64,000 nt of DNA from an uncultured Gammaproteobacteria bacterium (GCA_965231095.1 OZ246416.1:436380-500379), one strand, 5' to 3'. Shown: positions 38,741 to 57,868, counted from the first letter of the stretch. The notes: generated by a model not told the origin, from the sequence alone. Program-made: numbers and translations.

Positions 38741-38763
38741 AAAATATATAAATTACAAATACT

Positions 38764-40653: not shown

Positions 40654-40672
40654 ATTTTTATAATTATATTTT

Positions 40673-41089
40673 TTATGATTTTATATAATTTTTACTCACT
40701 TTTTTAAATTCTTCATAATCTTCAATATAGTCGCTCCGGTCTGGATTATAGTTTGTTGACGAAAGCGCGAAGAGCACGGCATCCGGTGAAAAATCTTTAA
40801 AATGATGCCAAACAAAATTCGGGACGTAAAGGGCGCCCGTTGGACCAACAAGCGGAATTTCTTCTAGGCCATTTCCTTTATCAATTACCGCCGTACAAGT
40901 TCCTTGGATTAAAACAAAAAACTCTTCTTCAATTTTGTGGCAATGGGCGCCGGTCGGAGCTTGGGGTTTCGTAATAAAATAAACTCGCTTCACGGGAAAA
41001 TCAATATAATCTTTAAGTTCCACCGGATTCATCACAAATTTCGGCGTTTCTATTTTTTTAAGTTCAAAAACCTTAAATTCTTTTGCCAT
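40673..41089 (-). CDS. Cupin-fold dTDP-sugar isomerase, FdtA/WxcM-like (dTDP-4-keto-6-deoxyglucose 3,4-ketoisomerase-like)
   Basis: 138 aa. VKRVYFITKPQAPTGAHCHK resembles the R.YF...RG.HAHK motif of FdtA-type isomerases. Too short for a typical RmlC (~185 aa). Confidence 0.5.
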   Translation of the reverse strand: MAKEFKVFELKKIETPKFVMNPVELKDYIDFPVKRVYFITKPQAPTGAHCHKIEEEFFVLIQGTCTAVIDKGNGLEEIPLVGPTGALYVPNFVWHHFKDFSPDAVLFALSSTNYNPDRSDYIEDYEEFKKVSKNYIKS

Positions 41090-41090
41090 A

Positions 41091-42104
41091 TTATTTGATA
41101 TGCGGGTTTAACTCTTCTTTTCTCTTTTGTATCTTTTCTACCCATTCTTTATTTGCCAGATACCATTCTACTGTCTCGCGCATACCCTGCTCAAATTTAT
41201 CTCGGCCATATTCCGGCGCCCACCCTAAAGCCATAATCTTTGACGCGTCAATCGCATAACGCCGGTCATGGCCTGGACGGTCAACGACATGCTCAATCAT
41301 TTCTTCTCCCTTACCCATAATTTTTAACATCATCTTTGTAATTTCCATATTGCTCCGTTCGTTATCAACGCCGATATTATAAACCTCTCCCACCGCGCCT
41401 TTGTGGAGTAATAGATCTAACGCCGCGGTGTGATCAGTTACATAAATCCAGTCGCGGACATAAAGCCCGTCGCCGTAAACCGGAACTTTTTGATCGCTAA
41501 GCAAACGAAAAATAAAAAAGGGAATTATTTTTTCCGGAAACTGGTATGGGCCATAATTGTTGGAGCAATGCGTGACGACCACCGGAACTTTGTGCGTCAC
41601 AAAATAAGCGTTGCACATCAGATCTCCGCCGGCTTTAGCCGCGGCATAAGGCATGTTAGGCCAGATCGGAGTTGACTCAATAAATTTTTTATCCTCATCA
41701 AGTCCAAGCGCGCCATAAACCTCGTCAGTTGAAACATTTACAAATTTTTCTAAATTATTTACGCGCACCGCGTCCAAAATCATCTGCACGCCCAAGGTAT
41801 TGGTCATAACAAAATCCTTGCAGCCGCCGTGGATTGAACGGTCAACATGAGTTTCCGCGGCAAAGTTTATCACGTGCGTGATGCCATGATCTTTTATCAC
41901 CTGATTTAATTTTTCCAAATCACAAATATCACCCTGAACAAAAGTGTAGTTCAAATTATTTTCCACATCGCGTAAATTATCTAAATTCCCCGCGTAAGTC
42001 AGCTTATCGTAATTTACGATTTTGTAGTCCGGATATTTTTTTAGCATTTGCCGGACAAAATTTGATCCGATAAATCCGGCCCCTCCACAAACCAATAAAT
42101 TCAT
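41091..42104 (-). CDS. rmlB: dTDP-glucose 4,6-dehydratase RmlB
   Basis: 337 aa. MNLLVCGGAGFIGSNF Rossmann motif, YAAAKAG (YxxxK), and NNYGPYQFPEK. Confidence 0.85.
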   Translation of the reverse strand: MNLLVCGGAGFIGSNFVRQMLKKYPDYKIVNYDKLTYAGNLDNLRDVENNLNYTFVQGDICDLEKLNQVIKDHGITHVINFAAETHVDRSIHGGCKDFVMTNTLGVQMILDAVRVNNLEKFVNVSTDEVYGALGLDEDKKFIESTPIWPNMPYAAAKAGGDLMCNAYFVTHKVPVVVTHCSNNYGPYQFPEKIIPFFIFRLLSDQKVPVYGDGLYVRDWIYVTDHTAALDLLLHKGAVGEVYNIGVDNERSNMEITKMMLKIMGKGEEMIEHVVDRPGHDRRYAIDASKIMALGWAPEYGRDKFEQGMRETVEWYLANKEWVEKIQKRKEELNPHIK

Positions 42105-43056: not shown

Positions 43057-43257
43057 TTATTCTTTAATTTTTTGTTTCTCCAATAGTATTGTCAGGATAC
43101 CAGAAACTAAAGGAATCATCAAGAGCAAATTAAAACTAATATAAAAACTTACAAAGCCGGGCTGGAACCATTCCAAAAGTCCAAAAATAATAAAAGAAAC
43201 AAAAGAAATCGCAAATGCGTCCCGGAAAATTTTATAGAAAAATTCTTTTATTGTCAT
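43057..43257 (-). CDS. Small membrane protein (2 TM)
   Basis: 66 aa, hydrophobic. Overlaps upstream gene by 4 nt. Confidence 0.25.
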   Translation of the reverse strand: MTIKEFFYKIFRDAFAISFVSFIIFGLLEWFQPGFVSFYISFNLLLMIPLVSGILTILLEKQKIKE

Positions 43258-43847
43258 AAAATTTTGTTTAACCGATCAATTATCTCTTCCAAAACTTTGT
43301 TGGCCACTTCTTTTTCCGTCATCGGCTTCCGAAGGAAAAGCGCCCTAATTTTATAAATCACAATGTCCCCAACTTGCAGCTCCGGCGCGGAAAATCCAAA
43401 TCTGAATTTTTTCCCTTCGGGCGCGAGCTTTCCCAATTCAAAAATTTCCGTTTTTGTCTGAAGGGCTCCTTCGGTCGGCGGCAGTTCACGGAAATCAAAC
43501 GCCCAATCGTCTTTATTTGCGAGGCCGCCGAACTTTATCGGCACGCCGGATAAATTTTTATATTTTATCGTCACAGCTACTTGGGAAAAATTACTATTTG
43601 GACTCAAGTCAAAATAAACCGGCTCGTCTTTAAAAACACGATAAGCTTCCTGGTCGGCGTCTCGTTTAATTTCCGAGACTCTATCCTTGGGATAAAGCTT
43701 GGAAATAAACGGCGTCTCGCGAGCCATGTCGTAAGTTGCCTCCATTCTTCCGCCCGGCGTAATCGCTTTCGCGGTAAGCCAGCCCAAAATAATAATGGGA
43801 ATAAAAATTAAAATTACGCGGATAAATTTATGCCAAAAAGAAAGCAT
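43254..43847 (-). CDS. Hypothetical protein with N-terminal signal anchor
   Basis: 197 aa. Single N-terminal TM, then a soluble domain. Confidence 0.35.
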   Translation of the reverse strand: MLSFWHKFIRVILIFIPIIILGWLTAKAITPGGRMEATYDMARETPFISKLYPKDRVSEIKRDADQEAYRVFKDEPVYFDLSPNSNFSQVAVTIKYKNLSGVPIKFGGLANKDDWAFDFRELPPTEGALQTKTEIFELGKLAPEGKKFRFGFSAPELQVGDIVIYKIRALFLRKPMTEKEVANKVLEEIIDRLNKIL

Positions 43848-43864: not shown

Positions 43865-45496
43865 TTAATTCTCATTTTTCAATTCTAACTTATAAAGCGT
43901 CTCTGCTCCAAAATTCTTTACTTCGGTTATCTCAATCTCTTCGCGATTGATTCTGCCATCATAAAGATAATTCATTTCTCGCTCAACGAGCGGTAATCCA
44001 TAATAATAAAGCGGAAAAGTTTTCGCGAGTTCGGGAATCGCGGTATAAGTGCTCTCTTCGCGAAGCGGCACAATCACCCGATGATCCGGAAAAAATATTT
44101 TGTCGGCGCGGTCAACAATAATTATCGCTTCGGCAGGAATCATCTCGTTCACCGTTTTGGCAATCGCGGCGTAATCCCAAACATTTTTATAAATATAAGC
44201 TAACCCGTCATTTTTATCAAAAAATACAAGATTCACTCCAAAAAGAATAAATATCAAACAAAGTACGCCGGCAAAAAGTTTTTCTTTCCAAGGGCGAATA
44301 AAATCAATTAATTTCGCGAGAGTAAACGCGACAAGCGGCAGCGACAAAATATAAATCGGCAACCAATAGCGCGTGTAAGAAGTTCCGATTGACGCAACCT
44401 TCGCCGGATTGTCATAAAAAACCCAGCTGCCGTAATACAAAAATAAAAATAAAGAAATAAATCCGCCAAGAGACAGATAAGATATAATTTTTTTATCTAA
44501 CTTTCCGGCGATTAATCTTCTGATAAAAACTACCGCGCCAAAAGCTGCGGGAAGGGCAAACCACCAAAACATTCCCGCAAAATACGTGGAGAAATTTTTC
44601 AAAATATTTTTAATCTGGAGACCAAAAGGAAAAATAAATTTTACGGCCGGCGTAAACCACCCCACTCCGGAAACCGCCGTGCTCCCCTCTCCTAAATTAT
44701 AAGCTGTTGTGAGCGGCTCGCCATAGATTGTCTGATTGTAAAAAATAACTGGAATGAAAGCCAGCCCCGCGGGAAGTAAAAAGACAATCACTTCAAGCCA
44801 TTTTAAATTTTTTCTATAAATTAAAAATAATAAAAAGAGCGCCGCGCCGACCCAAATTATTTCTGACAGCCGAACAGTTAAGGCTAAACCAAAAAATAAA
44901 CCAGCAAAAATATAATCGAGATAATTTAAAACCGGATTCTTTGGTTTTCCGCGCCCAACCAAAAAATAAAATCCCGCGAGTATCAGTGAGATAAATAAAA
45001 TATTCGGGAAAAATCCGCGGCTCGCGTAATACCAAAAAGCCGGATGAACTAAGAGTAAAAAAGCTGACCAAAGAGCGATTCTCCGATCAAAAATATTTTT
45101 TACAATTTTGTAAAGAAAAAAAACAGCGGCAATGGCAAAAAAGGGGGTAAGCCACCAAACTATTCCCAGGGTAAAAATTTTTGCCAACCACCCATAAATT
45201 AAAATCAATCCCAAAAAACTTCCCGGGATAAGATTTCCGCCCGAGGTCGTGATGCTCCGCGGATGAACTATTCCGCCAGTCGTAAGATTCAACGGTTCAA
45301 AAACTTTAAGCGTTCCCTCCACAACGTAATTTTTTATAAAAAAATAATTGGCCGCCTCATCTGGCGAATTAAATTTCGCTGTCGCGGCCGCTGTTCCCAA
45401 ATAAAACCATGAATAAATAAAGAAAAAAACGAGCGCTAAAAAAATCAACGCGGTTTCCGCCCTATTTCCCTTTATCCATTTTATGATAGAATACAT
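43865..45496 (-). CDS. Polytopic GT-C-fold membrane glycosyltransferase (ArnT/PMT/GT39-83-like)
   Basis: 543 aa, ~12 TM, with Arg/Asp-containing loops near the N-terminus. Architecture typical of polyprenyl-phosphate-sugar-dependent GT-C enzymes. Inference from topology only. Confidence 0.4.
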   Translation of the reverse strand: MYSIIKWIKGNRAETALIFLALVFFFIYSWFYLGTAAATAKFNSPDEAANYFFIKNYVVEGTLKVFEPLNLTTGGIVHPRSITTSGGNLIPGSFLGLILIYGWLAKIFTLGIVWWLTPFFAIAAVFFLYKIVKNIFDRRIALWSAFLLLVHPAFWYYASRGFFPNILFISLILAGFYFLVGRGKPKNPVLNYLDYIFAGLFFGLALTVRLSEIIWVGAALFLLFLIYRKNLKWLEVIVFLLPAGLAFIPVIFYNQTIYGEPLTTAYNLGEGSTAVSGVGWFTPAVKFIFPFGLQIKNILKNFSTYFAGMFWWFALPAAFGAVVFIRRLIAGKLDKKIISYLSLGGFISLFLFLYYGSWVFYDNPAKVASIGTSYTRYWLPIYILSLPLVAFTLAKLIDFIRPWKEKLFAGVLCLIFILFGVNLVFFDKNDGLAYIYKNVWDYAAIAKTVNEMIPAEAIIIVDRADKIFFPDHRVIVPLREESTYTAIPELAKTFPLYYYGLPLVEREMNYLYDGRINREEIEITEVKNFGAETLYKLELKNEN

Positions 45497-45505
45497 AAAT
45501 CAATT

Positions 45506-47638
45506 ATGACCCTCAGATTACCTTATTGTATCATCATTTCTTTGATTTTAATAGTCGGCTTGCTCGGCAATTTTTTCCTTTGGGAAAGCCCGCTGGTCGG
45601 CCTAACTTTCGGTCCGGCCTACCTTATTTTCTTCGGTTTTCTTTTGGGTTTTATTCTCTTCCGCGGCCGCCCCGATCTTTTCAAATTTCTCTACGGCCTT
45701 CTCTTTCTTTTAGCCGGCCTCTCTCTTTTCGGCGCCCTGATTTATTTTTTTTATAAATTGAATACTCTGGCACTAGGGACACTTGTTCTTCTGCCGCCTT
45801 TTGTTTTGCTTCCATTCCTGCGTTTCGGCAATCATCCTGAATCAGAAAAACATTTTAATCCTGTCCAAATCAACCCCCATATTTTGCGAACAACGTTTCT
45901 TCTGGCGGCGTTTATCTTTTTAACAGTTTTAAACGTACGCCATCTTTTGGCTCTGGGCACTGTTGAAGCTATCCGCAGCCCTTGGAAAATTTTGCCCTTT
46001 GATTTTTTTCTGACTTATGGCGCGGCAACCATTGTCCTTTTATATTTTGTTTTAAAAAGCCAAAAAGAAGGGCTGAATTTAATTTTAATTTCCGCGCATA
46101 CTTTTTTAACCGTGGCGCTTGCCCTTTTTGTTTATCGTATCGGCTACGGTTTTGATCCGTTCATTCACCAAGCCACGGAGAAAATTATTCTGGCGCAAGG
46201 TTTTATTTTGCCAAAACCATTTTATTACCTCGGCCAATATTCTCTTGTCGTTTTCTTGGCAAAAATTTTCCACACTTCGGTTGTTTGGGTTGACCGGCTC
46301 CTTCTTCCAATTTTAATTTCCACTTTTTTGCCGGCCACGGCCTATTTTTCCATCCGGCCATACACCGATCGAACCAAAACTCCCGGCGCAAGCTTAGCGG
46401 CCCTTCTTCTTTTTCTCCTACCTTTCACCTCTTTTCTCGCCACCACTCCGCAAGGCCTGGCCAATTTTTTTCTTTTGATAATAATTTTCTTTGCTGTCCT
46501 CGCCCTACGACGAGAATTTTCTATTTCCGCCCTTTGGTTTTTGGGTTTTACCGCGCTCCTCATCCATCCTCTGGCCGGCCTGCCCGCGCTTATATTTTTA
46601 TTTCTCCTCACGGTTTTTACTTTTTTTAAAAAACAACAAGGCATTTTTGAATTTGTCCGCCACGTTGTTTTTATAATGAGCACTCTTCTTGCCGCCGTTG
46701 CCATCCCCTTGGTATTTCTCGCGGCGATTTTATTTTTCAAGGGACCCTCCGCGATAATTTCTATCAAAACAATTGAGGGCGCGGATAATTTTCTCTCGGC
46801 TCTCGGCTGGTCTGTACCGTTTTTAGTTGATCACTTCCGGCCGCTCTTTGACTTGGCTTACACTTACGGACAAAATATTCCTTTTCTTCTCTTGCTCGTC
46901 GGCTTTGGCGGATATTTTATTCTCCGAAAAAATTTACCGTCTATTTTAGTTTACATCACCGCTTTTTTTGCCTTAATCACCAATTACGTTTTAATAAAAC
47001 TCTTTGCCGATTTTCCCTCGCTCATAAAATACGAGCAAGGAATTTTTCCCGGCCGCATTTTAGAAATCAGTTTTTATTTTTTAATTCCTCTTTTTCTCTT
47101 CGCTCTCTACAAATTTTTTGAAAAATTAATGGAAGGCAAAAGCCGCGGGCTGAAATTATTTTTCATTTTAATTTTTTCCATATTTTTAACTTTTTCATTT
47201 TACTATTCTTATCCCAAAGACGACGGCGAAGATTATCCGATTGACCGCGGCTATTCTGTTTCCCTTTTTGATTTAAACGCGGTCAAGAAAATTGACTCTG
47301 ACGCCGCCGGCGCGGACTATATTGTTTTAGCCAATCAAAGTGTTTCCGCCGCGGCAGTCAAAGAATTTGGATTTAATAAATATTTTGGCCCATACTTTTA
47401 TTATCCAATTCCCACCGGTGATCCGCTTTACCAATATTATCTGAAGATGGTTTACGCGCCGCCAACTCGCGCCACTGTCGCTGAAGCAACAAAATTGACC
47501 GGCGTTCGCCTTGTCTACTTTGTCTTAAATAAATATTGGACCGATTCGGAAAAAATTTTAGAAGCCGCCCGCCCCACCGCCGACGAAATTTTGGAAATTG
47601 GGAATGGAAGGATTTGGATTTTCAAATATCAGTTTTAA
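45506..47638 (+). CDS. Large polytopic membrane protein with C-terminal extracytoplasmic domain (possible GT-C/DUF2079-like)
   Basis: 710 aa, more than 14 TM, C-terminal ~150-aa soluble domain. Divergent from the previous gene, with 9 bp between start codons. Confidence 0.4.
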   Translation: MTLRLPYCIIISLILIVGLLGNFFLWESPLVGLTFGPAYLIFFGFLLGFILFRGRPDLFKFLYGLLFLLAGLSLFGALIYFFYKLNTLALGTLVLLPPFVLLPFLRFGNHPESEKHFNPVQINPHILRTTFLLAAFIFLTVLNVRHLLALGTVEAIRSPWKILPFDFFLTYGAATIVLLYFVLKSQKEGLNLILISAHTFLTVALALFVYRIGYGFDPFIHQATEKIILAQGFILPKPFYYLGQYSLVVFLAKIFHTSVVWVDRLLLPILISTFLPATAYFSIRPYTDRTKTPGASLAALLLFLLPFTSFLATTPQGLANFFLLIIIFFAVLALRREFSISALWFLGFTALLIHPLAGLPALIFLFLLTVFTFFKKQQGIFEFVRHVVFIMSTLLAAVAIPLVFLAAILFFKGPSAIISIKTIEGADNFLSALGWSVPFLVDHFRPLFDLAYTYGQNIPFLLLLVGFGGYFILRKNLPSILVYITAFFALITNYVLIKLFADFPSLIKYEQGIFPGRILEISFYFLIPLFLFALYKFFEKLMEGKSRGLKLFFILIFSIFLTFSFYYSYPKDDGEDYPIDRGYSVSLFDLNAVKKIDSDAAGADYIVLANQSVSAAAVKEFGFNKYFGPYFYYPIPTGDPLYQYYLKMVYAPPTRATVAEATKLTGVRLVYFVLNKYWTDSEKILEAARPTADEILEIGNGRIWIFKYQF

Positions 47639-47738
47639 AAAAAATAATAAAACGCCAGAAAATAATCACCGGCGTTTTTTTATTGACAAAAAATAAAATA
47701 AATGATTAAATAATGAGTCACCAACAAAGGAGGGCTTG

Positions 47739-48038
47739 ATGACCAACAAAGAGAAGGCCAAGATGGAAGACATTCTGATGCGGCACTTGGAGGAAGACGA
47801 CCGTCTTTGCCCGATCGCCGAAGCAATGCCCGGCGACTACGTCACCGTAGTGCTTCCCTACAAGCTTTTGTGGGCTTTCCGCGTGAACATCGCTCGCCAC
47901 GCGATCGTGCGCAAGCGCGACTTGTCTCGGCCCGACGACGGAGTGGAGATCGAACTTCTGAACGACCGGGCCGAAACCGATCAGCTTCCCCTGGACTATC
48001 CGTGTTTCGTGACGCCGCCTGCGACCGACGAGGAATAA
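47739..48038 (+). CDS. Small hypothetical protein, GC-rich islet 4 (~99 aa)
   Basis: ~58% GC. AAGGAGG lies 5 nt upstream of ATG (MTNKEKAKMEDIL...). Followed by a terminator. No family recognised. Confidence 0.45.
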   Translation: MTNKEKAKMEDILMRHLEEDDRLCPIAEAMPGDYVTVVLPYKLLWAFRVNIARHAIVRKRDLSRPDDGVEIELLNDRAETDQLPLDYPCFVTPPATDEE

Positions 48039-48073
48039 CAACAAAAAACCGCCGGAAAATCCGACGGCCGCCC

Positions 48074-48100
48074 GCCACCAGCTCAATGGTGGCTTTTTTT
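48074..48100 (+). terminator. Rho-independent terminator after islet 4 ORF
   Basis: GCCACCA-gctcaa-TGGTGGC followed by TTTTTTT. Confidence 0.55.
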
Positions 48101-49283
48101 ATAATCCTACAATTTTTTCAATATAATTTTCAATTTTAAAATTTTCCACCGACTTTACGGCGGCTGGCCGAATTTTTTGTAATTCATCGCGCGAAGTGGC
48201 GGCGTGTTTTAAGGCGCGCGACAAATCTTCCGCATTTCCGACATTAAATGTAAAACCATTTTCACCATCTTTTACAAGTTCCGCCACTCCCCCGATTTTT
48301 GCGGCCAAGACCGGCACGCCGGCGGCTAAACTTTCGTAAATCACGGCTGGTGAGTTTTCGTAGCAAAGTGAGGGAACAACAGTCAAATCAACCTGATTAA
48401 AATTTTCCGCTACTTCTTTGCCGATTAATTTTCCGTGAATCACGAATCGCGGATCATCACCGACCATTTTTTTTAACTCTTCCATTTTAGATCCGTCACC
48501 GGCGATATGAAGTTTAAAATCAAAATCACATTTTTTCAAAACTTCTACCAAAAGAAAAATTCCTTTGTGTTCCTCTATTAAACCAAGGTAAAGAAGTTTT
48601 AAAATACTGTTGTCCATCGGCATTCCCGCCGGATAAATCCGCTCTACCGGATTTGGCAGTACCACCTTTTTTGATTTTTTAAAAAATCCTTTGGACGCGT
48701 AAAAATCCAAAAGCCATTTTGATGGCGAAACAACAACGTCGGGCGAAGCAAAAAGGCGTCGGCACGCCGCTTCATAGAGTTTACGAAGCCATGTTCGCTG
48801 CTCCCAATTTTTTTCTCGGCCGGAAATAATCAAGCCGCTCGGCACGGCGAGTTGCACGTCGTGGAGCGTGTGAATATGTTTAATGCCGAGTTTGCAAATC
48901 GCGCGCGGAATTTCAAATCCTATACCCATCAAATTATGTGTCAAAACTAAATCCGGCTTTTCGGACCGCAAAATATTTTTCACTGATCTTCGGCTCTGGC
49001 AATTGAACATATCAAAAAAGTGCCAGACAAGCCGCGCTAACGCATTATGTTTGTGACCATTTAAATAATAAAAAATATTTGCCGGATAAAATCGATAAGT
49101 TTTTAAGCCATTTTCTTCGGCGGCAACCGGTTTTAACGACGCCCACCCGCCCCAGGGTTTTGTAGAAATAACAAAAACTTCATGGCCAGCAGATTTTAAA
49201 CCCCGCGCCACGCGTTCAGCCACTCTTTCCGCTCCCCCGCGAAAAATCGGCGGAAATAAATTTGAAATTATGCAAATTTTCAT
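48099..49283 (-). CDS. Family 4 glycosyltransferase
   Basis: 394 aa. MKICIISNLFPPIFRGGAERVA N-terminus and C-terminal E-X7-E-like region (YENSPAVIYESLAAGVPVL). Confidence 0.7.
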   Translation of the reverse strand: MKICIISNLFPPIFRGGAERVAERVARGLKSAGHEVFVISTKPWGGWASLKPVAAEENGLKTYRFYPANIFYYLNGHKHNALARLVWHFFDMFNCQSRRSVKNILRSEKPDLVLTHNLMGIGFEIPRAICKLGIKHIHTLHDVQLAVPSGLIISGREKNWEQRTWLRKLYEAACRRLFASPDVVVSPSKWLLDFYASKGFFKKSKKVVLPNPVERIYPAGMPMDNSILKLLYLGLIEEHKGIFLLVEVLKKCDFDFKLHIAGDGSKMEELKKMVGDDPRFVIHGKLIGKEVAENFNQVDLTVVPSLCYENSPAVIYESLAAGVPVLAAKIGGVAELVKDGENGFTFNVGNAEDLSRALKHAATSRDELQKIRPAAVKSVENFKIENYIEKIVGL

Positions 49284-49284
49284 T

Positions 49285-50397
49285 TTATTTCTGAAAATAT
49301 TTTTTCAACTCTTCCCCCACTTTTTTCAAATCATATTTTTCCAAAACTATTTCTCGGCCGTGCCTGCCAAAATCTTTGGCCGCCTCAGGATTATCCAAAA
49401 AGTAATTTATTTTTTCCGCCAGTTCCTTGGCATTGCCCGGAGAAAAAGTAAAACCACTTACCCCATATTCAATAACACTTCTCACGCCCGGCAAATTTGA
49501 AGCGATAATCGGCTTGGCGCAAGAGGCCGCTTCAATCAAAACTATGCCAAATGCTTCAGACCCGTCAAGCGACGGCAAAACCACAACATCAGCCAAATTA
49601 TAATAGTTTGGCAAGTCTTCCCCGCCGACCACTCCGGCAAAAATTATTTGATCTTTTAAATTTAATTCTTCTGCCATTTTTTCGTAATGCGCACGAAGAT
49701 CTCCATCGCCCACCACCAAAATTTTGGCGGCCGGAACCATGGCCTTGGCTTTAATCAAAACTTCTAAGCCCTTAAAATAATGCGCTCGATCCAACCCGCC
49801 GACAAATAAAATAGTTCGGCCGGCGGTAAGGTTAAATTTTTTAATAAGTTCTGCTCGCGGCTCGGCGGGGGAAAATTTTTCCGCATCTACGCCAAAAGGA
49901 ATTTCAACAAATTTCTCCGAATTTTTTTCTAAAATATCTTTAACATTGGAGTTTTTCGCATAGTCCAGAGATGAAACAATAATTTTATCTGCTCGCCCTA
50001 AAATTTTTGGCATCCAGTTTTTTGTATGCCAGCGGAATAATTTTCCAAGCCAACCGCTCCCCACGACGTCGTGATGATAAGTTATTATCAATTTAAATTT
50101 TCCTTTCACCACTTCCGCACCTCCAAAAAATGGATAGTGCAGATGAACCGCGTCGAAACTTTTTAATTTCCACCAAAGCTGCGGCAAAAAAGCCGCGTTA
50201 CCATATCTAAAAAACGGCCTCAAACGAAAGAGGCGAAAATTATTTTCCTTTTCTTCTTTTTTCTCTTCCGGACGGCGCGGAACAAAAACCGTCACCTCGT
50301 GGCCGCGGCGCGCCAATTCTCTGGCCTCGGTGTACGCCGCCGTTCCGATCCCGCCGCGATACGGCGGAAAAACCGGTGAGACAATCGCAATTTTCAT
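49285..50397 (-). CDS. Family 4 glycosyltransferase
   Basis: 370 aa. MKIAIVSPVFPPYRGGIGTAA, and EAFGIVLIEAASCAKPIIAS (E-X7-E). Confidence 0.75.
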   Translation of the reverse strand: MKIAIVSPVFPPYRGGIGTAAYTEARELARRGHEVTVFVPRRPEEKKEEKENNFRLFRLRPFFRYGNAAFLPQLWWKLKSFDAVHLHYPFFGGAEVVKGKFKLIITYHHDVVGSGWLGKLFRWHTKNWMPKILGRADKIIVSSLDYAKNSNVKDILEKNSEKFVEIPFGVDAEKFSPAEPRAELIKKFNLTAGRTILFVGGLDRAHYFKGLEVLIKAKAMVPAAKILVVGDGDLRAHYEKMAEELNLKDQIIFAGVVGGEDLPNYYNLADVVVLPSLDGSEAFGIVLIEAASCAKPIIASNLPGVRSVIEYGVSGFTFSPGNAKELAEKINYFLDNPEAAKDFGRHGREIVLEKYDLKKVGEELKKYFQK

Positions 50398-50400
50398 AAC

Positions 50401-51459
50401 TTACCAAAAAATTAACTGACGAACTATTTTCCAATAAACATTCAAAATCGGATTAACAATATATTTTAAAATCGGATTGGCAATCTCCTGAAATTCTAAT
50501 TTACCGACGATCAATTTTGCCAACTGCCTGTCCGACACCTTCTTTATCTTTGCCTTAGCATTTTTATTTTTAATCATTCGCTGCCAATTTCTCCAATGAA
50601 AAAAATATCCGTAGACTTTTAGTTTTGTCACAAATAGTCCGCGAAGCGCCGCATAAAAAAGCATTCCCAATTCCATAACTAAAAATGGCAAAAAAATCAA
50701 AATCAAAGTACCGATTCTAAAATTTTCAAATAACATAATCAGCCGATTCCGTTCCATATAATAAAACTGTAAAATGCTCCGAGAAAACTGATATTTATGA
50801 AACATCAATGATTTTTCCGCCAAAATTATTTTGTATCCCGCTTGCCGGATGCGCCATGACAAATCAGTATCCTCGTGATACATGAAAAATTCCCGGTCAA
50901 AAATTCCGACCTCGCGTAAAACTCGCGCGGGATATAAAACTGACGCGCCCGAAGCGTAAAAGAAATCGTTGGCTACCGGATATTTTATGTTGGATGCCAC
51001 CTCTCCATATCCACGGCAAAATCCAAAACCCAAAAAATGCAGCTCGTTCCCGAGCGAATTAATTTTATCTTTTTCCGGATAAAGGCGGATCAAAGATTGC
51101 ACCGCGCCGACATTTTTATCCGCCTCGGCCGCCTCAACCAATTCGCGAAGCCAATCGGGATCGGCAATCGTGTCCATATTAAAAAGAACTATATAATCAT
51201 AGTTCGCACCAAGCGCCGCCTCCATCGCTAAATTATTTCCTAAAGCAAAACCTGAGTTTTTTTCTTCCAAAATAATTTCCGCTTCCGGCGCAGTTTCGCG
51301 TAAATATTTTTCCGTCTCCGGCGTCGTCGCGTTATCAACTATAAAAATCTTAAAGCTATCCTTGGGATAGCTTTGTGCTCGTAGGCTCGCGATGCATTCC
51401 GGCAGATATTTTTTCGCGTAGTCTTTATAATTTATGAGAATTACGGCAACTTTTGGCAT
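50401..51459 (-). CDS. Family 2 glycosyltransferase
   Basis: 352 aa. VAVILINYKDYAKKYLPECIASLRAQSY...IVDNATT, DxD (DTD), with C-terminal TM helices. Confidence 0.7.
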   Translation of the reverse strand: MPKVAVILINYKDYAKKYLPECIASLRAQSYPKDSFKIFIVDNATTPETEKYLRETAPEAEIILEEKNSGFALGNNLAMEAALGANYDYIVLFNMDTIADPDWLRELVEAAEADKNVGAVQSLIRLYPEKDKINSLGNELHFLGFGFCRGYGEVASNIKYPVANDFFYASGASVLYPARVLREVGIFDREFFMYHEDTDLSWRIRQAGYKIILAEKSLMFHKYQFSRSILQFYYMERNRLIMLFENFRIGTLILIFLPFLVMELGMLFYAALRGLFVTKLKVYGYFFHWRNWQRMIKNKNAKAKIKKVSDRQLAKLIVGKLEFQEIANPILKYIVNPILNVYWKIVRQLIFW

Positions 51460-51473
51460 AAACCAACTTAAAT

Positions 51474-51833
51474 CTAAGTTTTTTCCTTAATCACATTCCG
51501 CTTATTATTTTCCACCTCATCTTTCATCGCCACGGTTCTGACGACTTTGGTAATATTTCTTTCAATTTTTTCGATTTTAATCGTCATCTGAAAAATAATG
51601 TAAAAAATCAAAACGATGGAGAGATAAACAATCAAATCGGCGCCGCGGCCCACCCCGACAAGCTCGGCCAAAAAACTTGTTGTGTCGGGCAACAAAATTA
51701 TTAATCCCACCACAAACCAAAAGCCAATCCAAAAAACGACATCCTTTGAAGCTAAAATCCCTTGCTTCCATTTTATCACCACTCGATAAATGATGAGCAA
51801 AATCAAAAAACTCAAAAAATACTGAATAAGCAT
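51474..51833 (-). CDS. Small membrane protein, DUF2304-like (often partnered with DPM1-like GT2; possible lipid-linked sugar flippase subunit)
   Basis: 119 aa, 3-4 TM, charged C-terminal tail. Immediately downstream of the DPM1-like GT2. Confidence 0.4.
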   Translation of the reverse strand: MLIQYFLSFLILLIIYRVVIKWKQGILASKDVVFWIGFWFVVGLIILLPDTTSFLAELVGVGRGADLIVYLSIVLIFYIIFQMTIKIEKIERNITKVVRTVAMKDEVENNKRNVIKEKT

Positions 51834-51872
51834 AACATTAACTTTTAACAGTTAACAATTAACATTTAACTT

Positions 51873-52538
51873 TTATTTTATTGATCTTCCTAAAAATAAA
51901 TCAAATAAAATTTTTAAATAATCAGGCAGGCGCTGGCCGCGGCGAATTTGCGGGGAAAAATATTTTACTGTCACCGGAACTTCCTCGTAGCGCAAACAAT
52001 GGTGGCCGATTTTTTCTAAAATTTCCGAGGCGTGCGCCATGCGGTTTTGTTCAATTGTAATTTTCTCCGCCGCTTCGCGCGAAAAAGCCCGGAAACCATT
52101 ATGAGTGTCAGACAAATTCAGTCCGGAAGTTAACCGGGTAAAAATTGTTGCGCCTTTCAAAAAAAATTTCTTAACCAAAGGAATTTCCGATTTCATAAAA
52201 CGCGCTCCCAAAACAACATCAGCTCGACCTTCCGCCACCGGCCGAACAACATTGTTAATTTCTTCCGCGACAAATTGCCCATCCGCGTCGTAAGTCACAA
52301 TAACATCGGCCTGGCGCAAAAGCGCAATTTTTTTCCCGGTTTCGAGCGCCGCTCCCTGGCCGCGATTTAGAAAATGGGAATAAACAATCGCGCCCGCCCT
52401 TTTGGCGTGCTCCATTGTGTGATCCGCCGAACCATCATCAACCACTACAACTTCCGTCACATACTTTTGCACCTCCATCACAACGTCGGCGATTGTTCTT
52501 TCCTCGTTGTAAGCGGGAATTATCGCAATTGTTTTCAT
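51873..52538 (-). CDS. Polyprenyl-phosphate glycosyltransferase (GT2, DPM1/ArnC-like)
   Basis: Start trimmed to MKTIAIIPAYNEERTI...VVVVDDGSADHT. DAD motif (YDADGQ) and C-terminal amphipathic region. Confidence 0.75.
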   Translation of the reverse strand: MKTIAIIPAYNEERTIADVVMEVQKYVTEVVVVDDGSADHTMEHAKRAGAIVYSHFLNRGQGAALETGKKIALLRQADVIVTYDADGQFVAEEINNVVRPVAEGRADVVLGARFMKSEIPLVKKFFLKGATIFTRLTSGLNLSDTHNGFRAFSREAAEKITIEQNRMAHASEILEKIGHHCLRYEEVPVTVKYFSPQIRRGQRLPDYLKILFDLFLGRSIK

Positions 52539-52557
52539 ACCAAAATTACTCAATTTT

Positions 52558-53583
52558 TTATCTCTCGTCAACCATCCCCTGCTGGCGAAGAAGCGGTTTA
52601 TAGGCTTGCGTGTAATCAATTGTTTTTTTCAAACCGTCCTCAAGCCGAACGAGCGGCACCCAACCAAGCATCTCTTTCGCCCGGCTTGTATCGGGCAAAC
52701 CAAGCGCCGTCATAAAAAGCAATGGTTTTTCAAAAACTATTTTTGCTTCAGAACCGGTCATGGAAATAATTTTATTTGCCACCTCAACCAATTTCAAATC
52801 TTCATTGCTGCCCAAATTAACCGGCCCAATATCGGCCGGCGCGGCCATAAGCTTCACTAACCCGGAGATGACATCATCAACATAGCAAAGCGAAGTGGAA
52901 AAATTTTCGTCGCCGTAAATAATTAAATCCTTATTATCCAGAGCGTCAATAATAAAATCCGGAACCATTTCTCCGTCAAACAATCTTTCTCGCGGGCCAT
53001 AGGTTCTAAAAATTCTCGCGATTTTTGCGTCCAAATCATGCATCTGGCGGTAGGTTTCCACCATCGTTTCGGCGAATCTTTTCCCCTCGTCATAAGAACC
53101 TCGCGGCGTGAGATGATTTACGCAACCAAGCGTGTCTTCCTTAAAAAATTCCTTATCCTCTTGCCGCGGACCATAAACCACAGATGATGAAGCATGCACC
53201 ACTTTTGCCTTATATTTAACCGCCAAATCCAAAATATTTTTCATTCCTATGGAATTGGCCGCGAGCGTGGCCGCCCTAAATTCATCAAAATTTTTCGCCG
53301 AAGTTGGACAAGCTAAATGATAAATCTCCGCCACTCCTTCAAATTTTACTTTAAAGCGCTCCAATTCCGGAAAAGTTTCCAGATCAATGGACTCCGAAAT
53401 GTCATGTTTAATAAAAACAAAATCCGGATGTTGAAGCAGAAAATCAATGTTTGAAACATTACCGGTGGAAAAATTATCTAAACAAATTACCCGGCTGGTT
53501 TTAATTAATTTTTCACAAAGATGCGAGCCGATAAATCCGGCGCCGCCCGTAACCAAAACATTTTTTTTCTCAAGGTTTTCCAT
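52558..53583 (-). CDS. NAD-dependent UDP-glucuronate decarboxylase-like epimerase/dehydratase (UXS/ArnA-C-terminal-like)
   Basis: Start trimmed to MENLEKKNVLVTGGAGFIGSHL. YDEGKR (YxxxK) and RIFRTYGPRE match the UXS family's RIFNTYGPRM. Confidence 0.7.
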   Translation of the reverse strand: MENLEKKNVLVTGGAGFIGSHLCEKLIKTSRVICLDNFSTGNVSNIDFLLQHPDFVFIKHDISESIDLETFPELERFKVKFEGVAEIYHLACPTSAKNFDEFRAATLAANSIGMKNILDLAVKYKAKVVHASSSVVYGPRQEDKEFFKEDTLGCVNHLTPRGSYDEGKRFAETMVETYRQMHDLDAKIARIFRTYGPRERLFDGEMVPDFIIDALDNKDLIIYGDENFSTSLCYVDDVISGLVKLMAAPADIGPVNLGSNEDLKLVEVANKIISMTGSEAKIVFEKPLLFMTALGLPDTSRAKEMLGWVPLVRLEDGLKKTIDYTQAYKPLLRQQGMVDER

Positions 53584-53665: not shown

Positions 53666-55885
53666 TTATCTTATCACTCCAACATTTATTCCTCCCTTAA
53701 AATCTTGGCCAAAAGCAAAAAATTCTTTACGCAAAAATCCCTTATTATTATATACCTTAACATGCGGCCCGCCGCCCGCTCCGGCGCCAACAATAATTTC
53801 CGAAACTTTATCTCCATCCAAATCACCCAAAGCCAATGTCACTCCTCCGACTAAATTAACAAACGGAGAAAATTTTAATTTCAAAGTCATATACTGGCCG
53901 TAAACCCTAACCTCGCCGCTCCCGCTCATCTTGCTTACCGCCAGCTCGGAAATTTTATCCCCGTCAATGTCGCCGACAGAAATTCGAACGCCGCTTCTGT
54001 GTTCTTTTTCGAAAGCTAAAAATTGAGTATTTAAATTTCCTTTGGAATCAAAAACTTTAATCATGGACTCCAGCCCATTGCCCGGCGCCGTAACTATGTC
54101 TGCTCGCCCGTCACTATCAATATCGCCAACCGCAACATTTACTCCCCCGCGAAAAGTTGTGGCATAGGCCATAAATCCGCCGACGGCCGTTCCGTCCTGG
54201 CGAAAAATTCTAACATGCGGCCCGCCGCCCGGCCCCGCGCCGGTAATAATTTCGCTTTTCCCGTCACTATCAATATCGCCAACCGCAACATTTACTCCCC
54301 CGCGAAAAGTTGTGGCATAGGCCATAAATCCGCCGACGGCCGTTCCGTCCTGGCGAAAAATTCTAACATGCGGCCCGCCGCCCGGCCCCGCGCCGGTCAC
54401 GATTTCACCAACTCCGTCCCCGTTTAAATCACCCGAAGACAAACTCACACCGCCTAAAAATTTTTCCGGATAAACCAAAAAACTTTTTATAAAAGTGGAA
54501 TCTTCTTTAAAAATTTTTACTTCTGGTTTTAAACCAGCGAGTGGGCTAACAATTATATTCCCCTTTTGAAGTGCAAAAGGAGAACTCTCCGTTGTCAAAT
54601 ATGCCGCCTCAATTGTCCGGCCAATATTTAATCTCCCCTTTCCCAACTTGCCAACATAATCGGGATTTTGAGCGTCAATATTATCAGCATTCACTGTTAG
54701 AAGATTTCTAATCTCCGGCACGCCAAGACTTGGATTTAAAGATTTTATAAGCGCCGCGGTTCCGGCAACAATCGGCGCGGCTACCGATGATCCTGACCAT
54801 CCGCCACTGTAATATTCCGTAAATTGCGGCATACCGGGATTGTACGCAACCGTGCCCCAAATATCAATTCCCGGCGCGGCCACATCAACGCACTTTGTTC
54901 CGTAATTTGAAAATTCTGCTTTTTTGTCGTCTTTATCCGTCGCGGCCACCCCGATCACAATATTTTCTCCGTCGCCCCCGTAATAACAAACCGGGTAAAG
55001 CGGCTCCTCATCCAAATTTTTTCCCGAGCTGCCATAATTCCCCACTGCGGCCACAACTACAATGCCGGCTTTGTATGCCCTCTCCAATGCCAAAAATAAA
55101 CTTTTACTAAAACCTGATCCAATAAAACTTAAATTGATAACGTCCACTCCTTTTTCCACCGCGTAATCAATTCCTTCAATCACCGTTAAAACATCACCCG
55201 AGCCGGAAGAATCTAAAACGCGGATTGGCATAATTTTTGCCTCCCAAGCCACGCCGGCCGTCCCTCGCGAATTGTTCCCCACCGAAGCGGCTACTCCAGC
55301 GACGATTGTTCCATGATCAATTCCTTCTTTGGTAAACCACCACTCTTTAAAATCCGGTCTGGCGTTATTGTCGCCCGCGACAAAATCCCAACCATTCACA
55401 TCGTCAACATAAATATTTCCATCATTATCCACTCCATCGTTTTTGACTTCTCCTGGATTAACCCAAATATTATCCGCGAGATCAGGATGATCGATATCCA
55501 CCCCAGAATCCAAAACGGCGATTACCGTATCTTTGTTGCCCGAAGTTTTTTCCCAGCCACTCCACACATGGACTTTATCCAAGTACCATTGCTTGGAAAT
55601 AAAGGGGTCGTTTGAAGCAATTGTCTCGGCTGTCATTTTATAATTCGGTTCGGCAAATTCCACCTCCGGCCTATTTTTATATTTTAAAATTGCCTCCGAC
55701 ACGCTCTCGCCTGAATCTAAAACTATTTTTTCCACCCGTTCCTGATTTTTGAATTTAACCAAAATCTCGTCCGCTTTGTATGGCAGAATATTTTTTTCCA
55801 AAGCCAAAACCCCGGGACCAAAAATCGTGAAAATTAAACTAAAAATTGTCGCCAAAATGATATTTTTGCGCATAGATTTATTCAT
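53666..55885 (-). CDS. Secreted subtilisin-like serine protease (S8) with C-terminal FG-GAP/VCBS-type repeats
   Basis: 739 aa. Catalytic D (VAVLDSGVDIDHPDL), H (HGTIVAGVAAS) and S (GTSVAAPIVAGTAALIKS). Then at least five GDxDGDG...GAGPGGGPHV repeats, including a near-identical 153-bp tandem duplication. Confidence 0.8.
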   Translation of the reverse strand: MNKSMRKNIILATIFSLIFTIFGPGVLALEKNILPYKADEILVKFKNQERVEKIVLDSGESVSEAILKYKNRPEVEFAEPNYKMTAETIASNDPFISKQWYLDKVHVWSGWEKTSGNKDTVIAVLDSGVDIDHPDLADNIWVNPGEVKNDGVDNDGNIYVDDVNGWDFVAGDNNARPDFKEWWFTKEGIDHGTIVAGVAASVGNNSRGTAGVAWEAKIMPIRVLDSSGSGDVLTVIEGIDYAVEKGVDVINLSFIGSGFSKSLFLALERAYKAGIVVVAAVGNYGSSGKNLDEEPLYPVCYYGGDGENIVIGVAATDKDDKKAEFSNYGTKCVDVAAPGIDIWGTVAYNPGMPQFTEYYSGGWSGSSVAAPIVAGTAALIKSLNPSLGVPEIRNLLTVNADNIDAQNPDYVGKLGKGRLNIGRTIEAAYLTTESSPFALQKGNIIVSPLAGLKPEVKIFKEDSTFIKSFLVYPEKFLGGVSLSSGDLNGDGVGEIVTGAGPGGGPHVRIFRQDGTAVGGFMAYATTFRGGVNVAVGDIDSDGKSEIITGAGPGGGPHVRIFRQDGTAVGGFMAYATTFRGGVNVAVGDIDSDGRADIVTAPGNGLESMIKVFDSKGNLNTQFLAFEKEHRSGVRISVGDIDGDKISELAVSKMSGSGEVRVYGQYMTLKLKFSPFVNLVGGVTLALGDLDGDKVSEIIVGAGAGGGPHVKVYNNKGFLRKEFFAFGQDFKGGINVGVIR
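54107..54396. repeat. Near-identical ~153-bp tandem duplication inside the S8 protease gene (one FG-GAP repeat unit duplicated)
   Basis: Two copies of a ~135-bp identical core (cgtcactatcaatatcgccaaccgcaacatttactcccccgcgaaaag...gcccgccgcccggccccgcgccggt) starting at ~54108 and ~54261. Confidence 0.7.
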
Positions 55886-55975: not shown

Positions 55976-57868
55976 CTAAAACAGATCGCTTATTGTCCTT
56001 GCGGCAGCCTCAACCGAGGCCTTATTATAATCCGATGTTCCGTTAACGTCTACTCCCGCGATAGCGTTCCCATAATTTGTTTTGTAAACTTCCGGCACAG
56101 CGATAATTTTCTTTTCCCAGTCCGCGCCGTAAAGCGAAGACGCCGTACTCGCCGAAGTAATCCATCTCAATTGTCCGGTCGCAGTCAGAACGTAAACTTT
56201 TGGATCAAGGACGCGGAAGGGGGTATCCATACTGACAAATTGAACCAAATATGTCCCGGGTTTTGCGAGAACATTTCCGCCGAGCGATACTGATGTTACG
56301 GTGCTGTGAGCCACAGTTTTAATGGTAGAAAAATCTGAATACCAAGAAAAGTAAATTGCTTGGGTCGGGAAAACATGCCTTTTCCCATCATCGCCGTAAT
56401 AATATACGGCGGTGCTTCCGGATTCTTTAAATAAATCTCCGTAATTCAAGTCCCCGGCAGTTGGGGTTGTAAAGGTAACCATCACTGTTTGGGATATAGT
56501 TACACCCCCAGCTACAGCTGTAAAATTTACTATTCCGGCGGTACCTGATTTAACATTAAAATAGGCTCTGCCCAAACTATCGGTGATCCCTCCGCCAGCG
56601 CCAAATGTAATTACATCCGCTACTCCAGTGCGACTAGAATACAGAGCAACCGTTTTCCCATTTAAAGGATTACTATCTGAATCACAGACCGTTACCGTGA
56701 CGAGAGAAAAATCCGCCCCGTTCGCTATCACCGAAGTCGGAGAAGCAGAAACACTTGATCTTGAAGCGGAAACCGAACCTGTTGTCACGGCCGTAAATGT
56801 CACGGTTGCTGTCTGGCTGATTGTCGTGCCGTCCGCCACGGCGGTCAAAGTCGCGCTACCAGTCGTACTTGAACGAACTTGAAAAAACGCGTTTCCGTCC
56901 ATGTTGGTTACGCCATTAACCACGGCGATTGTATCAATCGCCCCGCGACTGGAAGATAGCGTCACGGTTTTTCCGGAGAGGACGCTCCCTGAAGAATTTT
57001 TTGCCGTCACAATAATGCCGGAGAAAGAAGATCCGTTTGCCGTGACTGAAGTTGGCGACGCGGAAACCAGGGATTGACTCGCCGAAACAACTAAAGGAAC
57101 ATCCGCGGCAGTTCTAAAGCTCCATGGATTTGCCGCAGCCGGCGAACTTCCGAAAGACACCAAATATCCGGATTTATCCTCGCCGCTTGCCGTAACTGTA
57201 ATATTTGTATCATAAGGAAGCGTTGATATCCTTGATCGAGTAACAGCCGTATTGTCACCGTTCCAAGAAGCCGCACCCCAACTTCCCTCGCTGATAGAAA
57301 GAGAAACCGTACCGGTCATCATTGGCTCGGAAAAAGTTACGACAACAGACGGCGTCGTAACACTAACTCCGGTTGCCCCGGAAGCCGGCACAGTAGAAAC
57401 AATAACCGGCGAAGCGTTGTCATCAATATTAATAAGAGACTGATCCGGCGCAAAAACACTAAGAACCGCGACACTTCCCAAATTTTCTTGATTTATATAA
57501 TCAAGATCTGCCGGGAAAAAAATTCCTGGATAACCCGTTTTATTGGCGGCTCCCCCCACCAAAAGATAAAAATAATTTGTACTGCCGTCGCAGTTTGCGT
57601 CAACTCCCGCGCCGTTTAATATCCCCGTTGGACCGGTCAGACCAACACTTCCTCCACCAAGCGCCCAATCCCCCGCTTCAAATTTACAATTTGTGACATT
57701 ACCATTCCAAACCACTTTTACGCGGTCAATCGTACCATTATGATTAAAATCACTAAAAGCGGCCGAATCCATGGTCGGCGTCCAGGCGTTTGCCGCTTGC
57801 GGAAAAAAACTTACTCCACTCGCGGTCAAAGCTATGGCAACAACAAGAAAAATTCTTAATGTTTTCAT
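55976..57868 (-). CDS. Secreted Ig-like (Big) repeat surface protein with conserved C-terminal ~190-aa domain (paralog 1)
   Basis: 630 aa. Signal peptide and repeated Big-like segments (...SGSVLSGKTVTLSSSRG...ATLTAVADGTTISQTATVTF). The C-terminal domain YYYGDDGKRHVFPTQAIYFSWY... is shared with the next two genes. Confidence 0.5.
   Translation of the reverse strand: MKTLRIFLVVAIALTASGVSFFPQAANAWTPTMDSAAFSDFNHNGTIDRVKVVWNGNVTNCKFEAGDWALGGGSVGLTGPTGILNGAGVDANCDGSTNYFYLLVGGAANKTGYPGIFFPADLDYINQENLGSVAVLSVFAPDQSLINIDDNASPVIVSTVPASGATGVSVTTPSVVVTFSEPMMTGTVSLSISEGSWGAASWNGDNTAVTRSRISTLPYDTNITVTASGEDKSGYLVSFGSSPAAANPWSFRTAADVPLVVSASQSLVSASPTSVTANGSSFSGIIVTAKNSSGSVLSGKTVTLSSSRGAIDTIAVVNGVTNMDGNAFFQVRSSTTGSATLTAVADGTTISQTATVTFTAVTTGSVSASRSSVSASPTSVIANGADFSLVTVTVCDSDSNPLNGKTVALYSSRTGVADVITFGAGGGITDSLGRAYFNVKSGTAGIVNFTAVAGGVTISQTVMVTFTTPTAGDLNYGDLFKESGSTAVYYYGDDGKRHVFPTQAIYFSWYSDFSTIKTVAHSTVTSVSLGGNVLAKPGTYLVQFVSMDTPFRVLDPKVYVLTATGQLRWITSASTASSLYGADWEKKIIAVPEVYKTNYGNAIAGVDVNGTSDYNKASVEAAARTISDLF

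Follow-up and report, generated by a model that had tools for sequence, protein, structure and literature searches.

The window analysed here is a stretch of DNA of 64,000 nucleotides, deposited under the title of an uncultured Gammaproteobacteria bacterium (OZ246416.1:436380-500379), and the subject of this study is a cluster of glycan genes at positions 43865-53583. The cluster consists of eight long open reading frames (ORFs), and ORF calling and translation found all of them where an earlier reading, made from the sequence without database searches (the sequence-only reading), had placed them. They encode a short-chain dehydrogenase/reductase (SDR) of the extended type and of the UXS-like clade, a small and a large glycosyltransferase (GT) of family GT2 (GT2S and GT2L), a small DUF2304 membrane protein, two GT4 enzymes (GT4a and GT4b) and two polytopic membrane proteins of 710 and 543 amino acids (aa) with a predicted GT-C fold (Table 1). 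We lean modestly towards the interpretation that the cluster is a Wps/Gac-like multi-component transmembrane glycosylation system, which would load a sugar on a lipid carrier and attach a glycan outside the cell.

The genes from the SDR to GT4b follow one another with intergenic gaps of 1-39 nt, the DUF2304 gene being 39 nt downstream of GT2S, and owing to this tight spacing and the terminator-like hairpins downstream they fit an operon. The two GT-C genes are arranged head to head with their start codons 9 nt apart (45496-45506), so that each promoter must sit within the coding region of the other gene. This near-zero-gap pairing is retained in related loci.

The conservation of the locus was followed with a profile of the 710-aa protein, which was scanned against one genome per GTDB species, and at least 512 genomes were found to hold a relative. 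Synteny was counted in the best 80 loci of these, in which the window proteins were compared by tblastn; the denominators 62 and 47 are the loci with enough flank for the gene concerned. The order that recurs is RmlB, HIT, the 197-aa protein and the 543-aa GT-C (minus strand), then the 710-aa GT-C (plus strand), then GT4b, GT4a, GT2L, DUF2304, GT2S, SDR and the subtilase/FG-GAP gene. GT2S and DUF2304 adjoin in 28 of the 29 loci that hold both, and the 197-aa protein has weak, low-identity homologues in 26/80 loci. Because the genes follow one another in this way in 80 Patescibacteria genomes at species level, the grouping is not due to chance, and the genes that the sequence-only reading had joined into one module are conserved together. 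The same core is also present in loci retrieved via homologues of the SDR. The named taxa among the loci are Falkow-, Uhr-, Buchanan-, Komeili- or Parcubacteria, and the close homologues of the SDR, the 710-aa and the 543-aa protein all come from Patescibacteria; a protein identical to the window SDR is recorded on a contig of 886 kb. Third-party annotation (TPA) records of metagenome-assembled genomes with the locus are often titled "uncultured Gammaproteobacteria", and one "uncultured archaeon"; these titles are probably wrong. A search of a limited library of papers found no Patescibacteria-specific work on this locus.

Table 1. Features of the cluster and of its surroundings, with the share of syntenic loci in which each is found
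Feature	Position	Strand	Evidence	Loci
Extended SDR, UXS-like clade	52558-53583	-	Pfam; match to solved human UXS1	29/47
Small GT2 (GT2S), 221 aa, predicted soluble, putative GacI/WpsA/PpgS type	51873-52538	-	Pfam, NCBIfam	28/47
DUF2304 small membrane protein, 3-4 transmembrane segments	51474-51833	-	PF10066, E 9e-23	25/47
Large GT2 (GT2L), 352 aa, C-terminal membrane segment	50401-51459	-	Pfam, transmembrane prediction	28/47
GT4a (GT-B, retaining)	49285-50397	-	Glycos_transf_1, E 5e-39	34/47
GT4b, last gene of the minus-strand operon	48099-49283	-	Pfam GT4	35/47
Terminator-like hairpins between the convergent GT4b and 710-aa genes	48047-48093	both	consensus scan only	
710-aa polytopic protein, predicted GT-C fold	45506-47638	+	AlphaFold/Foldseek; without Pfam family	54/62 (divergent GT-C pair)
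543-aa PMT_2 GT-C	43865-45496	-	Pfam PMT_2, 34.1 bits (cutoff 26.1)	54/62 (divergent GT-C pair)
197-aa protein, one N-terminal transmembrane segment and outside domain, without family	43254-43847	-		
Small ORF, 66-aa peptide with two transmembrane segments, without family match, 3' of the 543-aa GT-C	43057-43257	-		
Small ORF without family match	47739-48038	+		
Subtilase, secreted and with FG-GAP repeats, gene directly upstream of the SDR	53666-55885	-	Pfam	21/47
RmlB-type 4,6-dehydratase	41091-42104	-	Pfam	
FdtA-type cupin (FdtA/WxcM)	40673-41089	-	E 3e-26	
RmlD	38764-39603	-	Pfam	
RmlA-like nucleotidyltransferase	37670-38740	-	Pfam	

The predicted lipid-sugar synthase and the GT-C proteins

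The highest-scoring NCBIfam model for GT2S is that of PpgS, the polyprenyl-phospho-N-acetylgalactosaminyl synthase (176 bits, E 7e-52, model positions 4-224/226), and as this score lies below the equivalog cutoff of 370 bits, GT2S belongs to a related family, to which the donor sugar of PpgS cannot be transferred. The next matches are AglJ (97 bits) and then a dolichyl-phosphate hexose transferase, and the best solved structure is an archaeal dolichol-phosphate mannose synthase (DPMS 5mlz, E 1e-11). PgfS gave 40 bits, and the ArnC model, which has a cutoff of 529 bits, gave 37.7. The description of GT2S as DPM1/ArnC-like in the sequence-only reading was therefore right in the type of reaction and wrong in the family. 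No transmembrane segment is predicted in GT2S, and a D-A-D-G-Q motif can be read in its sequence, which is comparable to the DXD..Q site of WpsA.

The DUF2304 family has been described in several systems. GacJ is a DUF2304 protein that binds and stimulates GacI, a GT2 that makes HexNAc-P-Und; the DUF2304 homologue Rv3632 stimulates PpgS; and WpsB both activates WpsA and anchors this otherwise soluble enzyme to the membrane. By analogy, the DUF2304 protein of the window is predicted to be an activator and membrane anchor of the adjoining GT2S, of the same type as GacJ, WpsB and Rv3632. It had been proposed as a flippase partner, a role that the characterised members, being activator and anchor subunits of GT2 enzymes, argue against. 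On account of the PpgS match, the predicted solubility, the DXD..Q-like motif and the literature on DUF2304, the pair of GT2S and DUF2304 is assigned to the GacI/GacJ type of lipid-sugar synthases, together with WpsA/WpsB and PpgS/Rv3632, and GT2S itself is predicted to be an undecaprenyl-phosphate (Und-P) glycosyltransferase making sugar-P-Und. GT2L, the next gene, matches the rhamnosyltransferase subfamily TIGR01556 with 56.9 bits, below the cutoff, and is predicted to be an elongating transferase at the cytoplasmic face.

Fold prediction was required for the two polytopic proteins because sequence searches were empty: with the 710-aa protein neither Pfam and NCBIfam nor the PDB sequences gave a match, and the PDB sequence search with the 543-aa protein also returned nothing. 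The AlphaFold model of the 710-aa protein has a pLDDT of 88.3 and a pTM of 0.91, and its top 11 Foldseek matches consist of GT-C enzymes throughout (AftA, STT3 in a number of oligosaccharyltransferase structures, PglB, ArnT), the first nine with a probability of 1.00 and with TM-scores of 0.34-0.44. A transporter or a Wzy-type polymerase was considered and rejected, as the transporter matches of Foldseek have a TM-score of about 0.1 and low probability. None of its 409 homologues is functionally named by its source, and every named taxon among them belongs to the Patescibacteria, also called Candidate Phyla Radiation (CPR). D217 and H221 are invariant and E225 is nearly so, in a loop that is predicted to lie outside from helix order and charge. 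Judging from the model, we are confident that the 710-aa protein has a GT-C fold. It represents an unmodelled family confined to Patescibacteria, and we predict it to be an extracytoplasmic glycosyltransferase or polymerase that uses a lipid-linked donor.

For the 543-aa protein (pLDDT 90.8), Foldseek places ArnT on top with a TM-score of 0.54-0.56, followed by ALG12/ALG9, STT3, AglB, PglB and Pmt4, of which ALG9/12, STT3 and PglB reach nearly the same scores. Homologues of the 543-aa protein carry the annotation GT39 or ArnT-like, and Pfam PMT_2 is a generic family. P45-D46 and N50 are invariant and E47 is nearly so, in the first outside loop after the first transmembrane segment, where the catalytic acid of GT-C enzymes usually sits. 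The 710-aa and 543-aa proteins show a weak relationship to each other when their profiles are compared (66% probability, E 5.5e-5). Both membrane proteins are thus GT-C by fold and neither is a transporter according to Foldseek, as the sequence-only reading had supposed, and in most loci the two folds are syntenic with the lipid-sugar synthase. The logic of a polyprenyl-phosphate GT2 combined with GT-C enzymes holds for the PpgS-type GT2S and this pair. The single-pass 197-aa protein, often encoded 3' of the 543-aa GT-C, is a possible accessory or acceptor-binding partner.

The UXS-like SDR

The sequence-only reading took the SDR for a UXS-like decarboxylase and, from this, a pentose for the sugar. 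The overall kinship stands: human UXS1 (hUXS1) is the best solved match (216.8 bits, E 4e-63; the next reaches 113 bits, E 1e-31), and the identity is about 40% over the full length in tblastn. The glycine-rich NAD (Rossmann) motif and the YDEGKR Tyr/Lys motif are retained, and, relative to hUXS1, 14 residues are inserted after the protein's first third. An assignment to plain GalE or to the RmlB type was rejected, as the similarity to UXS is far higher.

Residues are numbered after the 2B69 chain, which agrees with Thr118, Tyr147 and Lys151 of the published work on hUXS1 (Eixelsberger et al., PMC3438964). According to that work, Glu120 and Arg277 do not vary within the UXS group, and ring distortion, C5 protonation and active-site closure need them; as a pair they close the active site and shape the carboxylate pocket, and Glu120 coordinates the water that protonates C5 (PMC3438964). 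The E120A variant of hUXS1 loses about 100-fold in kcat and still forms UDP-xylose slowly, and the R277Q variant loses about 1000-fold and stalls at the 4-keto-pentose (PMC3438964). In the alignment, Thr118-Ser119-Glu120 of hUXS1 corresponds to Ser-Ser-Val in the window SDR, Asn176 to Arg and Arg277 to Gly, and the Ser-Tyr-Lys centre (positions 118/147/151) is kept. The 120 closest homologues of the SDR share Tyr147 and Lys151 without exception, as well as Val120 (120/120) and Arg176 (120/120), and 116/120 have Gly or Cys at position 277. When 1.8 billion representatives were searched exhaustively and the best 150 aligned with MAFFT, the canonical UXS signature Glu120/Asn176/Arg277 is found in 101/150, and non-canonical residues at these positions are found in about 25 of the about 30 top-scoring representatives, those nearest the window SDR. 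A few of the nearest UXS-like representatives are without the catalytic Tyr or Lys (P0373, P0374, P0380, P0382 and P0384); they may be non-catalytic or perform a different chemistry.

Seen from its sequence, the window SDR belongs to a UXS-like clade in which the sugar pocket is rewired and the defining UXS residues are missing, and it is predicted to be a nucleotide-sugar modifying enzyme. A decarboxylase role, and hence a pentose, is not supported for it, because Glu120 and Arg277 are both replaced throughout the clade. A redox-neutral reaction at C4, such as 4-epimerisation, seems likelier than UDP-xylose synthesis, as no simpler chemistry is left to an SDR that has just the Tyr/Lys pair and acts alone; an epimerase paired with a lipid-sugar synthase has a precedent in the Pgf operon. 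The automatic label "UDP-glucuronate decarboxylase" is probably wrong for most of the clade. The Glu/Arg pair is presumably kept in ArnA as well.

A gene for Ugd, searched for with a short Ugd-like query from the relative L002, is not found among the ORFs of the 64-kb window. Short Ugd-like genes occur near the cluster in just 4/80 loci, so that linkage to Ugd is unusable for assigning the substrate of the SDR. Short Ugd-like genes near the cluster in two relatives (L002:3351-4235 and L004:5711-6532) encode proteins of 273-294 aa with the N-terminal and central domains and without the C-terminal domain, and they adjoin other epimerases and a Bac_transf gene. The variant SDR is tandemly duplicated in L004.

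The canonical signature is present in one of the 37 syntenic SDRs, in the locus L035. There, the slot beside GT2/DUF2304 (L035:17438-21246) holds a full Ugd of 428 aa, then a 314-aa UXS with the canonical signature (TSE...N...R) and an SDR that resembles GalE, which suggests that this lineage has a supply of UDP-xylose and perhaps of UDP-arabinose. In another locus, L060, a short Ugd-like gene is accompanied by an SDR in which Asn176 and Arg277 are retained and residue 120 is Asp. The gene content of L035, and also of L060, makes a pentose derived from UDP-glucuronate (UDP-GlcA) plausible for some versions of the locus. Further variants at positions 120, 176 and 277 occupy the same slot in other relatives. 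The window SDR probably descended from a canonical UXS-like enzyme, and the variation in the slot looks like a diversification of the sugar that is made.

Neighbouring genes

Beyond the 543-aa GT-C lies a set of genes at 37670-42104 that likely forms a dTDP-6-deoxyhexose pathway and would supply the donor for one of the transferases. Since a cupin of the FdtA/WxcM type is found where RmlC is expected, the product is perhaps not L-rhamnose. RmlD and the cupin are separated by a stretch of about 1 kb (39604-40672), where ORFs of different frames overlap and none has a family match. Many loci have an RmlB homologue upstream of their GT-C pair.

On the other side of the cluster, the FG-GAP part of the subtilase contains two nearly identical copies of about 40 residues (GGPHVRIFRQDGTAVGGFMAYATTFRGGVNVAVGDIDSDG), and a subtilase gene is also upstream in L002. 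It is followed by Ser/Thr-rich Ig-domain proteins (55976-62869) with 21-24% Ser+Thr. These giant proteins had been put forward as acceptors or partners of the system; they co-occur with the cluster in 2/80 and 0/80 loci, and for this lack of co-conservation they were rejected as dedicated acceptors.

The rest of the window is also rich in glycan genes, which are dense for a small genome. A division and cell-wall cluster at 11160-27303 includes FtsX/FtsE, a SurA-like peptidyl-prolyl isomerase, DivIC, two Mur ligases, MurG, FtsW and MraY. Three more GT2 genes in a row (one of 513 aa) and another GT4 are found at 1221-4629 and 20724-21866, and three NUDIX genes are interspersed (18567, 24129 and 42115). 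The sole aminotransferase of the window is of the class-V NifS type and lies beside NifU.

The proposed system and its alternatives

One form of multi-component transmembrane glycosylation system consists of a cytoplasmic GT-A enzyme, a small transmembrane protein, a flippase and a GT-C enzyme (Rismondo, Gillis & Gründling 2021, PMC8035078). Among known systems, the closest to the cluster as a whole is the lactococcal Wps pathway of the polysaccharide pellicle. In this pathway, WpsA and WpsB make GlcNAc-P-Und, WpsC-F elongate it on the monophosphate carrier, the flippase WpsG exports it, and the GT-C enzymes WpsH and WpsJ polymerise the product and attach it to the rhamnan; the gene after wpsB encodes a rhamnosyl- or galactosyltransferase, depending on the strain. 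The cluster shares with it a soluble GT2 with a DUF2304 partner, followed by cytoplasmic GTs, two GT-C enzymes and 6-deoxyhexose (Rml) genes nearby. It differs in that a Wzx flippase and a chain-length regulator were not found in scans of the window, the SDR heads the operon, the GT-C enzymes are unrelated in sequence, one of them being without a Pfam model, and the host is a Patescibacterium.

From the gene identities, folds, conserved motifs, synteny and active-site substitutions described above, we infer a scheme in which all enzymatic steps and their order, as well as the sugar and the acceptor, are proposals. With the DUF2304 protein as its membrane anchor and activator, GT2S would take a sugar from a UDP-sugar and load it on undecaprenyl phosphate, so that sugar-P-Und is formed. 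At the cytoplasmic face, GT2L, GT4a and GT4b would probably lengthen this monophosphate-linked primer to a short oligosaccharide, which a flippase would then move outward. The pair of 710-aa and 543-aa GT-C enzymes would polymerise the glycan, attach it to an acceptor in the envelope (a wall polymer or a surface protein), or do both. The SDR, as a UXS-derived paralogue without the decarboxylase Glu/Arg pair, would provide a modified UDP-sugar to one of the transferases. An oligosaccharide built on Und-P is favoured because the order of the operon, the GT-C pair and the nearby 6-deoxyhexose genes fit the Wps scheme.

Several observations weigh against this scheme. In six loci GT2S and DUF2304 are missing and the SDR directly adjoins GT2L, which means that the SDR is not tied to the Und-P step, that the sugar loaded on the lipid need not be its product, and that elongation by the GTs can proceed in the absence of this primer synthase. 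The sub-equivalog score of GT2S and the modest TM-scores of the 710-aa protein count on the same side, and the slot of L035 keeps a sugar derived from UDP-GlcA in play. In addition, no flippase of the GtrA, Wzx, MATE or SMR type appears in Pfam scans of the window ORFs. A GtrA-family gene is found near the cluster in the relative L004 and has no homologue in the 80 loci, and queries with the flippase, phosphoglycosyl-transferase and GtrA proteins of relatives gave 0-3 matches in the 80 loci, so that a conserved flippase is not seen among them. Among the small polytopic proteins of the window with a Pfam assignment, the only one annotated as an exporter is a PF06695 "putative small multi-drug export protein" of 166 aa (18059-18559), whose gene in the cell-wall cluster is flanked by MurD and a NUDIX gene; it could be a candidate flippase for lipid-linked sugars.

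A rather unlikely alternative is a division of labour of the Gac type, in which GT2S and DUF2304 make a monosaccharide-P-Und from which one GT-C adds a side branch, GT2L and the GT4 enzymes build a separate polymer primed on a diphosphate carrier, and the second GT-C acts as polymerase or ligase. It matches the mechanism of GacI/J/K/L of Streptococcus pyogenes, which add the GlcNAc side chain of the group A carbohydrate with a DUF2304-activated GT2 and an outside GT-C that uses sugar-P-Und, and it agrees with the six loci, which keep GT2L, GT4a, GT4b and the GT-C pair. However, besides MraY (Glycos_transf_4 with the MraY signature), scans of the window found neither a WecA/TagO or Bac_transf phosphoglycosyl transferase nor an ABC or Wzx exporter for a separate backbone, and the order GT2S-DUF2304-GT2L-GT4-GT4 mirrors wpsA-wpsB-wpsC and the genes that follow. 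The Gac system adds a single GlcNAc, whereas the operon of the window has three extra GTs; a Wzx flippase like GacK was not seen in the window scans, and there are two GT-C enzymes instead of one.

A related system is that of PpgS (Rv3631), Rv3632 and Rv3779 of Mycobacterium tuberculosis, which places galactosamine on arabinogalactan, the transfer being completed by the GT-C Rv3779. The likeness lies in PpgS, the top model match of GT2S, and in its DUF2304 partner, and the differences lie in the sub-equivalog score, the unsupported GalNAc and the families of the GT-C enzymes. An epimerase gene is presumably near the mycobacterial locus too.

The next alternative concerns the acceptor alone and is compatible with the Wps/Gac-like scheme. 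It holds that the cluster carries out a Pgf-like O-glycosylation of Ser/Thr-rich surface proteins, either the Ig-domain proteins or the subtilase, and we regard it as unlikely. In Streptococcus mutans, the pgf genes encode the GT-A enzyme PgfS, the epimerase PgfE and a pair of GT-C enzymes, PgfM1 and PgfM2, which modify Ser/Thr-rich adhesins encoded nearby, and the cluster likewise combines a GT-A, an SDR and two GT-C enzymes beside surface-protein genes. The 543-aa enzyme belongs to a PMT_2/GT39-like group, the downstream Ig-domain proteins have a high share of Ser and Thr, and the subtilase/FG-GAP gene is a neighbour in 21/47 loci. Against it stand the rarity of the Ig-domain proteins among the 80 loci, the YfhO type of PgfM1/M2, unlike both GT-C enzymes of the window, and the dTDP-6-deoxyhexose genes with three extra cytoplasmic GTs, which suggest a polysaccharide. 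Moreover, PgfS is a membrane-anchored enzyme of the GtrB type, and the Pgf system is without DUF2304 and without extra cytoplasmic GTs.

Quite unlikely is the Arn-like pentose route that the sequence-only reading had proposed, in which the SDR makes UDP-xylose or a 4-keto-pentose from UDP-GlcA, GT2S loads Und-P, DUF2304 helps to flip the product and a GT-C transfers it outside: the SDR is far nearer to UXS than to other solved SDRs (217 vs 113 bits) and keeps Ser119, Tyr147 and Lys151, the E120A variant retains slow UDP-xylose formation, L035 holds Ugd and a canonical UXS beside the same GT2/DUF2304 pair, and ArnT is the closest fold to the 543-aa GT-C, but Glu120 and Arg277 are replaced consistently across the SDR clade, Ugd is not found within 64 kb, GT2S is not ArnC-like and is without the transmembrane helices of ArnC, the characterised DUF2304 members are activators and not flippases, and Pfam scans of the window ORFs found no ArnB/DegT-type aminotransferase, formyltransferase, deformylase/deacetylase (ArnD) or ArnE/F. 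What the cluster has in common with Arn is thus the combination of nucleotide-sugar modification, a polyprenyl-phosphate GT2 and a GT-C. A bacterial lipid-carrier route for a pentose has already been described, with different enzymes (PMC11127046).

The Wps/Gac-like type of system to which we assign the cluster is already known in Gram-positive bacteria and mycobacteria. What is new is the lineage, the unmodelled GT-C family with its fixed pairing with a PMT_2-type GT-C, and the UXS-derived SDR clade without the decarboxylase pair. As a tentative extension, which we regard as less likely than not, the GT-C pair and the SDR clade with Val120 and Gly277 (and Arg176) might be a lineage-specific machine for envelope glycans, in which the SDR carries out a reaction new for its family, such as the epimerisation at C4, without decarboxylation, of a UDP-uronate, a UDP-pentose or a UDP-hexose, and the residues at 120, 176 and 277 set the type of surface sugar in these episymbionts.

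Patescibacteria make up a large part of bacterial diversity, and they are mostly uncultured and host-attached, with a cell-surface chemistry that is barely known. With relatives of the 710-aa protein in at least 512 species-level genomes, the locus is among the most widely conserved sets of envelope-glycan genes in this group. It offers testable handles on this chemistry in a lipid-sugar synthase of the Gac/Wps type, a GT-C family without a model and an offshoot of UXS with a rewired active site. The variation of the SDR between lineages may underlie the diversity of surface glycans in Patescibacteria.

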